In this document: piece after piece, positions 12,141-47,045 of the stretch | How the letters are laid out: every line of letters begins with the position of its first letter | Numbering within the stretch: position 1 is the stretch's first letter | From: Escherichia phage atuna | Length of the DNA stretch: 50,732 bases | Reading direction: 5' to 3' (one strand) | Sequence record: NC_049819.1 | Translations under genes and position numbers: made by a program | Notes under the pieces: model-generated | Told to the model about the DNA's origin: nothing | Databases searched by the model: none | The model's input: the letters and a program-made list of their open reading frames with translations, nothing else

Positions 12141-12350
12141 GTGTTATTTTTCTTGTTCCATTGTTCTCTCAGATACGCCGGATTATATACATACACATGA
12201 ATGATGGCACATACAGATACTCATAAAGAAAAATCACCACAAACAACCAAAACCACAAGAAACACAGATAACAAGAAAAAACAAATATACATACATAAAT
12301 AAATAAACTATTGATTTTATATGTATATATCTATTTTATTGATTGTTTAT
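12141..12350. repeat. A+C-rich strand-skewed low-complexity element, copy A (homologous to 42196-42510)
   Basis: Shared blocks tttttcttgttcc, cacatacagatac, gataacaa, acataaataaataa with copy B; plus strand almost devoid of G over ~150 bp. Confidence 0.6.
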
Positions 12351-12428
12351 TGCCCTTACGTTGGCTAAAATTTGCGCTAAATTTACGCCGTCTTAAATTC
12401 GATAACGCCGAAAAACAAAAAATAACAA

Positions 12429-12446
12429 GTAGCACTTTTTGCTAAA
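12429..12446 (+). promoter_or_regulatory. Conserved motif variant (GTAGCACTTTTTGCTAAA) + TATAGT upstream of lipoprotein gene
   Basis: Motif then TATAGT 21 nt after TTGCTA, then SD aaggag and ATG 12502. Confidence 0.5.
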
Positions 12447-12501
12447 CGCGCGCATTAAAATCGTGTATAGTTGAACCAACAACAACAAAGGAGATGAAAA
12501 G

Positions 12502-12771
12502 ATGAAAAAGTTAATTGCAGTTATCGCCACCGTAGCCGCTCTGACCGGATGCGCAGCGTCGCCTACTGGCGGCTTCAAAGAGATCGATTGCACGGCAAAA
12601 TTTAACGTTAAAACATTCCCTGTTAACGGATTCCATGAGGTCAAAATTAATGCAGTCCGCGAAAACAGATTCAGCCAAAAGCAATACAGGTTGAGCGTTG
12701 ACAATAAAGAAGTTAAGTTTATCAACCGCTGGCAAAATGAAAGTAAATTTATTGATTTGAGGTGTAATTAA
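12502..12771 (+). CDS. Outer-membrane lipoprotein, candidate superinfection-exclusion protein (Cor/Llp-like)
   Basis: Signal peptide with lipobox LTGC (MKKLIAVIATVAALTGC); small size; location beside tail-fibre genes. Confidence 0.55.
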   Translation: MKKLIAVIATVAALTGCAASPTGGFKEIDCTAKFNVKTFPVNGFHEVKINAVRENRFSQKQYRLSVDNKEVKFINRWQNESKFIDLRCN

Positions 12772-13049
12772 TGGCGCAATATGGTTATGCAATATATGAC
12801 GATCGAGGAAGGGAAGTTACAGGACTTTTAACGCCTGTTTTCTTCCTTGATAAATTCACTCAGCCATCAGGTAGCAAGACTTACCAAAACAGGCCACCAG
12901 GTAAATCATTGAAAGCAATATATGTTGGCATGAATTCCTGGCGTGGTGGCGACCCTGGCGCACCAAACTTAGGGGTAAGTGGCGACACCGTTACATGGAG
13001 TGGGCTTTCTGGATCTGATTCAAGATATATATATACTTTTTGGGGGTGA
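12771..13049 (+). CDS. Hypothetical protein (92 aa)
   Basis: ORF, start overlaps previous stop (TAATG). Confidence 0.4.
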   Translation: MAQYGYAIYDDRGREVTGLLTPVFFLDKFTQPSGSKTYQNRPPGKSLKAIYVGMNSWRGGDPGAPNLGVSGDTVTWSGLSGSDSRYIYTFWG

Positions 13050-13051
13050 TA

Positions 13052-13666
13052 ATGTACGGGATGAGTATAAAAAAATCAGACGGATCGTTATGGTTAAGTC
13101 CAGATTTCACTCCAGTTAATCTAATTGATCGGGCCGTAATATCTGCTAATACCGGAACCGTTTTTACTTCGTCAATTCCTGTTGATAGGGTATGTTTTTT
13201 CTTTGTTAGATTGACTGCTAAATCATACATATCATTTACGCAATTTAACAATGGTGGAAGGCACGCAATAAGAATTGATAGATCTGATAATCAAGGGGAG
13301 GTTATTGTTTATGCTTTTAGTAACATGGTGACTCCTCCAGGTAGTCACGGCATAGCGTTTTATAACGCTCATGGTGAAATGGTTTATCATGGAAAAATGA
13401 GGCCGCTTGATGCAAAGCAAGTTGGTGTGAGCGGGATCGCGTTTGATGTTAACCTGGGCTACCCTTGCGCAATAATGCCATCACTAACAGCGTTAAACTC
13501 TGTACCTAATCCGGCTTTAGGTGGATTTATGATTTTTGAGTCTCAAGCTGCCGCGTATGGTAACGGGATCTACTCTTTTTCTAGGCAGGTTGCACAAACC
13601 CCTGGACCTGTTGGTATTTACACCGCTTCATCTGTTTTGGTTATAAATGCATCACACTATGATTAA
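13052..13666 (+). CDS. Hypothetical protein (about 204 aa)
   Basis: ORF; ATG 13052 chosen over TTG 13040. Confidence 0.4.
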   Translation: MYGMSIKKSDGSLWLSPDFTPVNLIDRAVISANTGTVFTSSIPVDRVCFFFVRLTAKSYISFTQFNNGGRHAIRIDRSDNQGEVIVYAFSNMVTPPGSHGIAFYNAHGEMVYHGKMRPLDAKQVGVSGIAFDVNLGYPCAIMPSLTALNSVPNPALGGFMIFESQAAAYGNGIYSFSRQVAQTPGPVGIYTASSVLVINASHYD

Positions 13667-13669
13667 AAT

Positions 13670-13696
13670 TAAAGGGGGCTACGCCCCCTTTTTTTT
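13670..13696. terminator. Bidirectional terminator between convergent genes
   Basis: gggggctacgccccc stem followed by T8 on plus and T/A-rich run on minus. Confidence 0.75.
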
Positions 13697-42203: not shown

Positions 42204-42510
42204 CTGTTTTTTCTTGTTCCCGCGTGTTTTATCAATTTTACATGGTGGCACAATAACAATATAGGCGTTATTTTTCCTTATAAATCAATGTTATCATTGC
42301 CTGTTATCTAAGTTTTCTCGCGGAAAGTGCCATATAGATATATATACCCCTACATACCCATACACACATACAGATACACAAAAACTATATACCCCCACCA
42401 AATACCACAATAACCAAGATAACAAAAGAGAATATATAGATACATATAAATAAATAATCCTTATTTTTCAATGTATTATATAGGTATTGTTTGTTATTTT
42501 TTGTTATCGT
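42196..42510. repeat. A+C-rich strand-skewed low-complexity element, copy B (homologous to 12141-12350, with about 100-bp extra segment)
   Basis: Shared blocks with copy A; sits in the 640-bp non-coding region between divergent early arms. Confidence 0.6.
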
Positions 42511-46991: not shown

Positions 46992-47045
46992 GCCAGGTGT
47001 AAAAACCTGGCATAATCACATCGAACAAACAAAGGAGATCTGATC

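Follow-up and report, generated by a model that had tools for sequence, protein, structure and literature searches.

A putative BtuB-type receptor-binding and exclusion cassette beside the J-like gene of a T1-like coliphage

Described loci and the cassette of the window

Loci of the kind analyzed here have been described as a receptor-binding protein (RBP) together with a cognate exclusion protein (PMC8594841, PMC9586334, PMC12685063, PMC12309495, bioRxiv 10.64898/2026.04.02.716166). The closest is the BtuB-type 'bona fide RBP locus' of the BASEL phages FritzSarasin (Bas04) and KarlJaspers (Bas06), in which the same genes lie in the same order and orientation beside J, and in which the functions of the individual genes have likewise been inferred (PMC8594841; bioRxiv 10.64898/2026.04.02.716166). 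Receptor mutants identified BtuB, not FhuA, as the terminal receptor of Bas04, and Bas06 is also BtuB-dependent (Maffei et al. 2021, PMC8594841).

Oekolampad (Bas18) resembles the present locus in that an operon of exclusion lipoprotein and RBP, in this order, converges on J. Its RBP bas18_0025 (rtp44 in phage Rtp) recognizes LptD rather than BtuB (Dunbar et al. 2025, PMC12685063; PDB 9RPT, 9RPS) and is a single chain of 321 aa assigned to PHROG 1265, whereas the window encodes separate proteins of 92 and 204 aa. The exclusion lipoprotein of Oekolampad, bas18_0026 (rtp45 in Rtp), has the cysteine pair Cys30-Cys38 and acts by a steric clash inside LptD.

The FhuA-type cassette of T1, consisting of ST32, ST31 and Cor (also N15 gp22, gp23 and Cor, as well as HK022 and phi80), contains proteins of PHROG 557 and PHROG 425 too, and the pair is again situated beside J with a small exclusion lipoprotein close by. 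Its proteins are, however, only 23-27% identical to those of the window, the pair is co-directional with J, the receptor is FhuA, and Cor represents another lipoprotein family, encoded in both T1 and PeterMerian on the strand opposite to the pair. The same two protein families include the 'hand-like' and Ig-like tail-spike tip proteins of Dhillonvirus JLBYU60, Traversvirus (Stx phage 24B) and Littlefixvirus, which use FhuA or BamA as receptors and in which the pair and the spike gene point in the same direction (Matusiak et al. 2025, PMC12309495); the evidence for these tip proteins is in silico plus one SDS/PAGE band.

The window, a stretch of 50,732 nucleotides (Escherichia phage atuna, NC_049819.1), belongs to a Warwickvirus (Drexlerviridae), i.e. 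a T1-like coliphage. Comparison with the above systems showed no difference of substance from the Bas04/Bas06 locus, and the window represents a further isolate from that species group; the locus type is already described in the BASEL papers of 2021-2026. The lipoprotein, the 92-aa protein and the 204-aa protein shared 100% (bas04_0025), 98.9% and 99.5% identity with their FritzSarasin counterparts, and 56%, 72% and 65% with those of KarlJaspers, which has the same three-gene layout. Adjacency to the 3' end of J together with high identity to a BtuB-dependent phage, the two features of a BASEL BtuB-type RBP locus, was found. PeterMerian, an FhuA-dependent phage of the same genus, carries at the same site a different cassette with a true Cor and another arrangement. 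Since homologues of about 45% identity are also present in Stx podophages, for which BamA is the reported receptor, family membership alone leaves the receptor unfixed; judged from the near-identity to Bas04, the receptor of the window phage is most likely BtuB and not FhuA. The initial annotation had placed the locus in an FhuA/Cor frame on the basis of location and a signal peptide. That basis is superseded by the evidence from homology, fold and synteny, and the frame itself is contradicted by the 99-100% identity of the window proteins to those of Bas04.

Gene layout, promoter motif and terminator

Three tightly packed genes on the plus strand, encoding the 89-aa lipoprotein, a 92-aa protein and a 204-aa protein, are preceded by one recurring promoter motif (Table 1). 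The three-gene island had been delineated in the initial annotation, and each of its features was recovered at the same position. The ATG of the 92-aa ORF overlaps the stop codon of the lipoprotein gene (TAATG), and the 204-aa ORF starts 2 nt past the stop codon of the 92-aa ORF. For the latter gene, a mechanical ORF call gave a TTG start at 13040; since all homologues begin with MYGM, we regard 13052 as the real start.

Table 1. Features of the locus, with positions in the 50,732-nucleotide window
Feature	Position	Strand	Basis
Recurring promoter-associated motif copy, TAGCACTTTTTGCTAAAC (consensus ATAGCACTTTTTGTTAAAA)	12430..12447	+	Motif scan
-10-like hexamer TATAGT, putative operon promoter	12466..12471	+	Constant distance from motif
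RBS AGGAG of the lipoprotein gene	12489..12493	+	Read from sequence, 8 nt before ATG 12502
89-aa outer-membrane lipoprotein, candidate BtuB-specific superinfection-exclusion protein	12502..12771	+	Lipobox, homology
92-aa small tail-tip module, proposed N-terminal/adaptor part of a split RBP	12771..13049	+	PHROG 557
204-aa receptor-binding protein candidate, probable BtuB binder	13052..13666	+	PHROG 425, fold, identity
Bidirectional intrinsic terminator hairpin, common to the operon and the J-like gene	13671..13691	both	Structure scan
J-like central tail fibre/tail-tip protein, 1141 aa	13695..17120	-	Homology

When the genes were compared with those of KarlJaspers, the substitutions at codon positions 1/2/3 numbered 29/22/51 for the lipoprotein, 18/15/45 for the 92-aa protein and 58/33/112 for the 204-aa protein. 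The excess at third positions shows that the plus-strand frames of the three genes are coding. Four ORFs on the minus strand (12393-12725, 12511-12792, 12991-13251 and 13232-13420) were rejected as spurious, the substitutions being distributed according to the plus-strand frames.

The consensus ATAGCACTTTTTGTTAAAA was present in 22 copies on both strands of the window (at most four mismatches), as against 0.6 in shuffled sequences. Every copy pointed toward downstream genes, and most were followed, at equal distance, by a -10-like hexamer (CATAAT, TATAGT or TATAAT). A scan for canonical sigma-70 promoters upstream of the lipoprotein gene did not find a standard promoter; the hexamer TATAGT was missed because its spacing from TTGCTA is approximately 21 nt. 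The putative operon promoter was accordingly called from the recurring motif and not from the sigma-70 scan, and the motif-type promoter suggested earlier for the lipoprotein gene is one of the 22 copies. The leader of this gene, AACAAAGGAGAT, has a second occurrence at 47028.

With a 9-bp stem, six G-C pairs and a loop of 3, the terminator hairpin has a dG of -16.6 kcal/mol and a z of -3.2 on either strand. U8 follows it on the plus strand, UUUAAUUUU on the minus strand; the G+C-rich hairpin and subsequent U-tract of an intrinsic (rho-independent) terminator were found in both directions, as had been proposed. Gene layout and hairpin also agree with the earlier view that a single operon converges on the J-like gene and shares its terminator with it. 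For a structural gene it is unusual to share a transcript with an exclusion gene and to depend on a class of promoter that belongs mainly to non-structural regions; Oekolampad, however, has the same layout.

Rfam contained no RNA family matching any part of the whole window, PADLOC gave no result, and all NCBIfam matches were below threshold. In Pfam, the 92-aa and 204-aa proteins had no family, and the lipoprotein had a sub-threshold match to a lipoprotein site alone. Neither the three proteins nor the fused protein P0078 had a sequence match in the PDB.

The lipoprotein and its relation to Cor and Llp

The N-terminus of the lipoprotein, MKKLIAVIATVAALTGC, contains the lipobox L14-T15-G16-C17 with Ala at +2; the signal peptide comprises residues 1-16 and the lipid anchor is Cys17. 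Two further cysteines, Cys30 and Cys88, were invariant in 13 homologues. The resulting pattern (Cys17/30/88) parallels Cys17/25/73 of T1 Cor, and the Cor of PeterMerian likewise has Cys25 and Cys73. By analogy with the proteins described in PMC9586334, Cys30 and Cys88 may form an intramolecular disulphide. An AF2 model of the mature domain was all-beta with a pLDDT of about 80, and the match to the Llp fold was weak.

The full-length lipoprotein matched PHROG 1119, 'Cor', with an E-value of 1e-7. This match was gone when residues 1-16 were removed, whereas mature T1 Cor, used as a control, kept an E-value of 6e-19. The score against the NCBIfam Cor model (NF047972) was 18 bits, compared with the curated cut-off of 31, and the mature lipoprotein showed no significant sequence match to Cor or Llp. 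The protein has the lipobox, the sorting residue and the cysteine layout of Cor but not the mature-domain score, and the near-identical phage Bas04 uses BtuB and not FhuA. After the signal-peptide control, the reading as a true Cor was rejected; judged from these profile comparisons, the 'Cor' label is an artefact of the common signal peptide. The lipoprotein is Cor/Llp-like in architecture, but a member of a separate family linked to BtuB. The Cor/Llp-type lipoprotein of the initial annotation remains a good candidate for superinfection exclusion, but it is not demonstrably a member of the Cor family. Lipoprotein homologues of at least 50% identity were found in the same phage groups as homologues of the 204-aa protein of at least 60% identity. 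The GenBank record of phage Kalemo names the lipoprotein Cor.

The 92-aa and 204-aa proteins and their possible roles

The two downstream ORFs, previously listed as unknown, belong to PHROG 557 and PHROG 425. The 92-aa protein matched phrog_557 with an E-value of 4e-20 over residues 3-92 (2e-31 for T1 ST32), and the 204-aa protein matched phrog_425 with an E-value of 4e-49, its residues 1-204 aligning to profile positions 3-224 (9e-68 for T1 ST31). When the window pair was compared with the T1 pair by BLASTP, the E-values of 0.016 and 0.10 were close to noise, and only profiles made the kinship visible. In a set of 1.84 billion proteins, the PHROG 425-type family had 126 representatives at E ≤1e-3. 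A signal peptide is absent from the 92-aa and the 204-aa protein alike; the 92-aa protein lacks a hydrophobic segment (maximum KD 0.55) and the 204-aa protein lacks a membrane segment (maximum 19-residue hydropathy 1.28). The PHROG 557 name 'outer membrane protein' is a mislabel, and 'membrane associated protein' for PHROG 425 appears to be a misannotation, as the model of the 204-aa protein is a soluble beta-sandwich and does not show the membrane localization that the name implies. PMC12309495 likewise argues that 'membrane' names misannotate receptor-binding components of the tail tip.

A PHROG 557 gene was in every case immediately followed by a PHROG 425 gene, next to the J-like gene (T1, PeterMerian, KarlJaspers, JenP1 and Stx2 phage 86), an adjacency kept in seven phage groups. 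The two families also occur as natural fusions of about 315 aa, of which Pantoea phage Vid5 gp23 is a homologue (35% identity over the full length). The constant pairing, and the fusion in some phages, led us to conclude that the 92-aa and 204-aa proteins are most likely a split tail-tip RBP. The initial annotation had considered accessory receptor-binding or host-range proteins; the link to receptor binding and host range stands, but the two proteins are more than accessories. Two data sets gave no sign of the small proteins in the virion: the distal J region is not resolved in the cryo-EM of the T1 tail tip, and the fused homologue gp23 is not listed in the virion proteomics of Vid5.

The AF2 model of the 204-aa protein (pLDDT 89, pTM 0.83) was all-beta with two beta-sandwich modules, and a structural match showed that it shares its fold with the experimentally proven and solved RBP of Oekolampad. 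Comparison of the two families by hhalign gave a probability of 88% and an E-value of 2.8e-6 over 73 columns in the same register, with residues 79-155 of the 204-aa protein aligned to residues 196-269 of Oekolampad; significance was reached only when the Oekolampad family entered as an alignment of nine members, a single Oekolampad sequence giving none. Against phrog_1265, the 204-aa protein reached an E-value of 0.007 over 46 residues and thus fell short of sequence membership. On these alignments, it is classed as a remote homologue of the LptD-type RBP family and not as a member of it. For the 92-aa family, hhalign against residues 1-118 of Oekolampad was not significant (E 0.066), and the length arithmetic fits a correspondence with the N-terminal module of Oekolampad (offset of about 117 residues). 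The N-terminus of the 92-aa protein carries G-x-x-I-x-D/N-x-x-G as do the starts of both modules of the 204-aa protein, with weak similarity (E 0.015, 0.011-0.02).

Taken as a whole, the locus is quite likely the BtuB allele of the host-recognition cassette of T1-like siphophages, i.e. a split tail-tip RBP together with a BtuB-blocking lipoprotein. One promoter would drive three translationally coupled genes. The soluble two-module 204-aa protein would bind BtuB, and the 92-aa protein, as a third small module and most likely the counterpart of the N-terminus of the fused RBPs, would help to dock it onto J, which is the presumed docking partner of both. The lipoprotein most likely attaches to BtuB from the periplasmic side and alters the extracellular loops of the transporter, in the way T5 Llp does with FhuA; the Llp-FhuA complex (van den Berg et al. 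2022, PMC9586334; PDB 8A60) serves as the model for this action. With BtuB blocked, infected cells and debris would adsorb neither the window phage nor other BtuB-dependent phages. Such a cassette sets the outer-membrane receptor and hence the host range, the resistance mutations and the co-infecting phages that are shut out, which makes it relevant to receptor prediction from genomes and to the design of phage cocktails. The practical result for the window is a corrected annotation.

Other explanations were weighed against this reading. That a Cor/Llp-type lipoprotein blocks FhuA, the downstream ORFs being accessory host-range proteins of an FhuA-dependent phage in the style of T1, phi80 and N15, would agree with the full-length match to PHROG 1119, the Kalemo record and the presence of the pair in the PHROG families of T1 ST32 and ST31. 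It is highly improbable in view of the BtuB dependence of near-identical Bas04, the loss of the Cor match by the mature lipoprotein, the low NCBIfam score, the low identity to the T1 proteins, and the true Cor and other arrangement of FhuA-dependent PeterMerian. A membrane-located superinfection-exclusion or moron cassette of all three proteins, with the small ones absent from the virion, is suggested by the PHROG labels and categories, by the co-transcription of the three window genes from one promoter, and by the KanT1 authors, who presume an exclusion role from the association with cor. We consider it very unlikely, since the 92-aa and 204-aa proteins are devoid of signal peptides and hydrophobic segments, the 204-aa model is soluble and matches a solved phage RBP, and membrane-affinity calculations (PMC12309495) oppose membrane insertion. 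Moreover, the pair follows the tail-tip gene directly and in the same direction in T1, PeterMerian, Stx phage 86 and Vid5, and JenP1 has the pair without any lipoprotein.

Two further possibilities concern the division of labor at the tail tip. [quoted passage not shown] However, the natural fusions place one PHROG 557 module N-terminal to one PHROG 425 module, which implies a 1:1 stoichiometry in the phages carrying them, AF2-Multimer in PMC12309495 favoured J capped by the large protein over the small trimer, and the 92-aa protein shares, weakly, the N-terminal motif of the 204-aa modules; this arrangement is therefore unlikely. The chances are also slim that J itself recognizes BtuB through its C-terminal domain, with the small proteins only modulating or stabilizing J. 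Lewis et al. 2023 take J as the RBP of T1-like phages, the J C-terminus sets specificity in relatives targeting TolC, LamB and NupG, and J of the window (98.3% identical to the J-like tail tip protein of FritzSarasin and 68% to T1 gp33) is mosaic relative to PeterMerian around residues 840-960. Nevertheless, the last 100 aa of J are conserved across phages with BtuB-type and FhuA-type cassettes, whereas the cassette proteins differ completely with the receptor; the structure matched is that of a separate protein with a proven RBP role; and AlphaFold3 interaction models in a 2026 preprint, including BtuB with the Bas06 protein, support locus-encoded RBPs according to its authors.

The fold of the 204-aa protein, its remote homology to the LptD-binding RBP and the natural fusions suggest a single modular RBP superfamily; the link between the BtuB/FhuA-type large protein and the LptD-binding RBP goes slightly past the literature. 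We tentatively propose, as a possibility that we rate at somewhat below even, that the 92-aa and 204-aa proteins are a split three-module RBP sharing ancestry with the FhuA-type pair of T1, N15 and phi80 as well as with Oekolampad's single-chain RBP for LptD, and that the lipoprotein acts on BtuB as a second, independent case of the 'reverse allostery' that Llp exerts on a TonB-dependent transporter. If so, at least the FhuA, BtuB and LptD types of RBP, which were called 'unrelated' in 2026, and the pair of the Stx podophages would form one ancient superfamily that diversifies by splitting, fusing and swapping modules. The pair of Stx phage 86 is 48% (92-aa protein) and 45% (204-aa protein) identical to that of the window. 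Within the 204-aa family, the N-terminus and the starts of the modules are conserved, and residues 121-132 and 145-192 are variable.

Gene content of the cassette and its implied receptor

The initial annotation of this region was confirmed in its observations and partly supported in its interpretation. The three plus-strand ORFs described at 12502-13666 were present exactly as reported. In the comparison with KarlJaspers (Bas06), substitutions at codon positions 1/2/3 numbered 29/22/51 in the lipoprotein gene, 18/15/45 in the 92-aa gene, and 58/33/112 in the 204-aa gene. This third-position excess in the plus-strand frames shows that the three genes are real, and the antisense ORFs of the region were therefore rejected. 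The true start of the 204-aa gene is at 13052 and not at the mechanically called TTG at 13040, because all homologues begin with MYGM.

Positions of the cassette and of the compared features
Feature	Position	Strand	Details
A/C-rich element	12227-12306		ACCAAAACCACAAGAAACACAGATAACAAG...ATAAATAAATAA; recurs at 42397-42457
Promoter motif copy	12430-12447	+	followed by TATAGT (12466-12471), AGGAG (12489-12493) and the lipoprotein ATG
Lipoprotein gene	12502-12771	+	89 aa; signal MKKLIAVIATVAALTGC, lipobox L-T-G-C, lipid-anchor Cys17, Ala at +2
92-aa gene	12771-13049	+	start codon overlaps the stop of the lipoprotein gene (TAATG)
204-aa gene	13052-13666	+	starts 2 nt past the stop of the 92-aa gene
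Terminator hairpin	13671-13691	both	9-bp G+C-rich stem; dG -16.6 kcal/mol, z -3.2 on either strand
J-like gene	17120-13695	-	convergent with the operon
KarlJaspers lipoprotein signal peptide	L007 3001-3051		identical to that of PeterMerian Cor
PeterMerian Cor signal peptide	L009 11213-11163		true Cor
PeterMerian J	L009 6429-10007
Pantoea phage Vid5 gp23	L006 5001-5981		full-length homologue of the fusions
Stx2-converting phage 86 pair	L004 5714-6618		small and large genes
Distant Oekolampad RBP homologues	L015 2450-3469, L016 344-1363, L017 2159-3193		between tail-fibre and transglycosylase or DNA-injection genes

The motif-type promoter assigned to the lipoprotein gene was borne out in the sense that the ATAGCACTTTTTGTTAAAA motif has 22 copies in the window when up to 4 mismatches are allowed (0.6 expected). 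All copies are oriented toward downstream genes, most have a -10-like hexamer at a fixed distance (TATAGT in the lipoprotein copy), and many then carry a conserved leader, CATCGAAACGA...AGGAG. A canonical sigma-70 scan did not detect a promoter at the lipoprotein copy. The motif may represent a phage-specific promoter or regulatory class. The gap from TTGTTA to the -10 hexamer is approximately 22 nt, which exceeds standard sigma-70 spacing, and an inverted repeat forms the spacer in many copies, e.g. GCCAGGCGCAAAGCCTGGCATAAT. Sites include 2336(-), 3407(-), 23592(+), 36205(-), 39000(-), 40964(-), 41427(-), 42744(+), 44048(+), 46974(+), and 49810(+).

The proposed convergence on the J-like gene and the bidirectional terminator also held, as the hairpin is common to both transcription units and is followed by U-tracts in both directions, U8 on the plus strand and a weaker run on the minus strand. 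Upstream of the operon, a 500-bp intergenic stretch contains an A/C-rich low-complexity element that recurs approximately 30 kb away with 70% identity; the three tiny ORFs annotated in this region in the Kalemo record are probably not genes.

Of 69 records matching the operon region at the DNA level, 46, all published coliphages in the 95-99% identity band, are 96-98% identical to it. The near-identical coliphages include tonnikala and FritzSarasin (Bas04), both of Warwickvirus, Tempevirinae, Drexlerviridae; identity to Bas04 was 100% for the lipoprotein, 98.9% for the 92-aa protein, 99.5% for the 204-aa protein, and 98.3% for J. The terminal receptors of the BASEL phages have been determined with defined mutants, and that of Bas04 is BtuB (PMC8594841). 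BtuB-dependent KarlJaspers matches the window in the content, order, and orientation of its three cassette genes, with 56%, 72%, and 65% identity, whereas PeterMerian (Bas05), which belongs to the same genus as the window phage but is FhuA-dependent, has a T1-like cassette at the same site: J is followed by 103-aa and 197-aa genes on its own strand, beyond which a true cor lies in the opposite orientation. Since the cassette resembles those of the BtuB-dependent phages and differs from that of PeterMerian, the receptor implied for the window phage is BtuB and not FhuA, and the earlier FhuA framing is corrected on this point.

The lipoprotein and its Cor label

The lipoprotein had been proposed to be of Cor/Llp type. 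The full-length protein matched PHROG 1119 'Cor' (E 1e-7), and one GenBank record names it Cor. However, the mature part (73 residues) had no Cor match at a threshold as loose as E 1, whereas that of T1 Cor retained 6e-19, and the score of the lipoprotein in the curated NCBIfam Cor model, 18 bits, was below the cut-off of 31. It was therefore rejected as a true Cor, and the 'Cor' match of the BtuB-type lipoproteins is a signal peptide artefact. The signal peptide of the KarlJaspers lipoprotein is identical to that of PeterMerian Cor in 17/17 residues (MKKLIAVLIAAVALTGC), which explains the database labels, although the mature parts are unrelated. This shared signal peptide may mark a recombination joint.

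What stood of the proposal was the architecture of a small outer-membrane lipoprotein, alanine at +2 directing sorting to the outer membrane in E. coli, together with the cysteine pattern (Cys17/30/88 compared with Cys17/25/73 in Cor). Cys30, 13 residues past the anchor, is invariant, and the second invariant cysteine, Cys88, is the penultimate residue. The cysteines of the LptD-type exclusion proteins are arranged differently (Cys30-Cys38). In Llp and Cor, the cysteine pair forms an intramolecular disulphide (PMC9586334). Homologues with at least 50% identity occurred in the same phage groups as 204-aa homologues with at least 60% identity and were absent from the JenP1 and Stx groups, a distribution that fits a factor tied to one receptor. 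Compared with Kalemo, there were 15 nucleotide differences in the lipoprotein gene, 0 in the 92-aa gene, and 2 in the 204-aa gene.

The 92-aa and 204-aa proteins as a candidate receptor-binding protein

The two downstream ORFs had been listed as unknown, possibly receptor-binding accessory or host-range proteins. The latter part of the suggestion was retained, and the ORFs are identified as a candidate two-part tail-tip receptor-binding protein (RBP). The 92-aa protein matched PHROG 557 (E 4e-20), and the 204-aa protein matched PHROG 425 over its full length (E 4e-49), as does T1 ST31. The PHROG 425-type family is of modest size (126 representatives among 1.84 billion proteins), and no Pfam family was found for the 204-aa protein. 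No export signal was found in the 92-aa protein; the 204-aa protein showed neither a signal peptide nor a hydrophobic segment, leaving its database name 'membrane associated protein' unsupported.

The AlphaFold2 model of the 204-aa protein (26-sequence alignment) was confident and all-beta (pLDDT 89, pTM 0.83). Comparison with the single Oekolampad (Bas18) RBP sequence was not significant; family-to-family comparison with the nine-member Oekolampad family gave a probability of 88% and an E of 2.8e-6, aligning residues 79-155 with Oekolampad residues 196-269 in the register of a weak PHROG 1265 match. As in the window, the RBP gene of Oekolampad (bas18_0025) comes after that of a small exclusion lipoprotein (bas18_0026) and is convergent with J; Rtp and ETEP102 share this design. 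The Oekolampad LptD-type RBP also has distant homologues (23-26% identity) in phages of approximately 69-78 kb (the Kuravirus podophage EcoN5 as well as Bas93 and FH3); in several, e.g. FH3 and EP335, the match begins at residue 110, the proposed module boundary.

The 204-aa family is conserved at the N-terminus (residues 1-24) and at the start of the second module (85-120), and most variable at residues 121-132 and 145-192. Two members (P0084 and P0112) keep just the first 140 residues of PHROG 425, followed by unrelated C-terminal sequence with many PGYW-type repeats. Such a pattern would be expected if the N-terminal part anchors to the virion and the distal part contacts the receptor.

The PHROG 557 gene always lies directly upstream of the PHROG 425 gene, beside a J-like or tail-spike gene, as seen in T1, PeterMerian, KarlJaspers, JenP1 (which lacks the lipoprotein), and the short-tailed Stx2 phage 86. 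Natural single-chain fusions of approximately 315 aa have the PHROG 557 module N-terminal to PHROG 425 (P0075, P0078, P0081, P0107, and P0118); Vid5 gp23 is 35% identical to them, and its gene directly follows the J-like gene, overlapping its stop. Such fusions imply that the small and large proteins act as a single unit.

We read the 92-aa protein as the RBP's N-terminal or docking module, encoded separately. The 321-aa Oekolampad RBP is offset from the 204-aa protein by approximately 117 residues, which leaves space for an N-terminal module of this size, but the 92-aa family showed no significant match to that module when the sequences were compared directly. Both halves of the 204-aa protein start with a G-x-x-I-x-D/N-x-x-G motif (half-against-half E 5e-6), to which the 92-aa protein matched weakly (E 0.015 and 0.011-0.02); this hints at repeated modules. 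It is also possible that the 92-aa protein is a trimeric Ig-like extension of J (Matusiak et al., PMC12309495) or an assembly chaperone. The last 100 residues of J are alike in BtuB-type and FhuA-type phages, which is consistent with a shared docking surface for homologous RBP modules, with the receptor-specific differences residing in the cassette. J is otherwise a mosaic relative to PeterMerian J, with approximately 100% identity in residues 1-600, 92-100% as far as about residue 840, 47-68% around 840-960, and 73-87% from there to the C-terminus.

Proposed function and relation to published cassettes

A single promoter would thus produce the lipoprotein and the small and large modules. The candidate exclusion lipoprotein would block BtuB both on debris and on the infected cell, and the small and large proteins would assemble on the J trimer and confer BtuB specificity on the virion. 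Because BtuB, like FhuA, is a TonB-dependent transporter, the lipoprotein most likely acts by an Llp-type mechanism, in which it would bind the periplasmic face of BtuB and alter the extracellular loops; van den Berg et al. anticipated this mechanism for other transporters (PMC9586334). In T1 the pair is transcribed with J, whereas in the window it is inverted behind the exclusion gene, a layout that Oekolampad shows to be compatible with a virion RBP.

The cassette type is already known, and the window leaves the catalogue unchanged. A 'bona fide RBP locus' and its cognate exclusion genes have been described (Maffei 2021, PMC8594841; van den Berg 2022, PMC9586334), an LptD example has been solved (Dunbar 2025, PMC12685063), the small and large proteins have been recognized as misannotated tail-tip proteins (Matusiak 2025, PMC12309495), and the KanT1 paper (2026) uses the term 'extended cor cassette'. 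A 2026 preprint (bioRxiv 10.64898/2026.04.02.716166) distinguishes 'four unrelated protein families', FhuA-, BtuB-, LptD- or YncD-associated. The BtuB- and FhuA-type large proteins belong to one PHROG family and have fold and remote homology in common with the LptD-type RBP; these three families are therefore probably not unrelated. This relatedness, the small-large natural fusions, and the signal-peptide-driven 'Cor' label on BtuB-type lipoproteins go beyond the published descriptions.

Approximately 100 Stx phage records represent short-tailed Stx-converting phages with such a pair directly after the tail-spike gene. The Stx2-converting phage 86 proteins share 48% (small) and 45% (large) identity with the window pair. 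Under the within-family rule of the preprint (>30% identity), the Stx pairs would fall with the BtuB-type RBPs, yet the receptor reported for these phages is BamA. Five GenBank records (MG065643, MG065649, MG065663, MG065680, and MG065681) are named 'Campylobacter phage' with C. jejuni as the host, yet their cassettes are of T1-like coliphage type, with proteins 53-65% identical to those of the window, and this host assignment looks doubtful.
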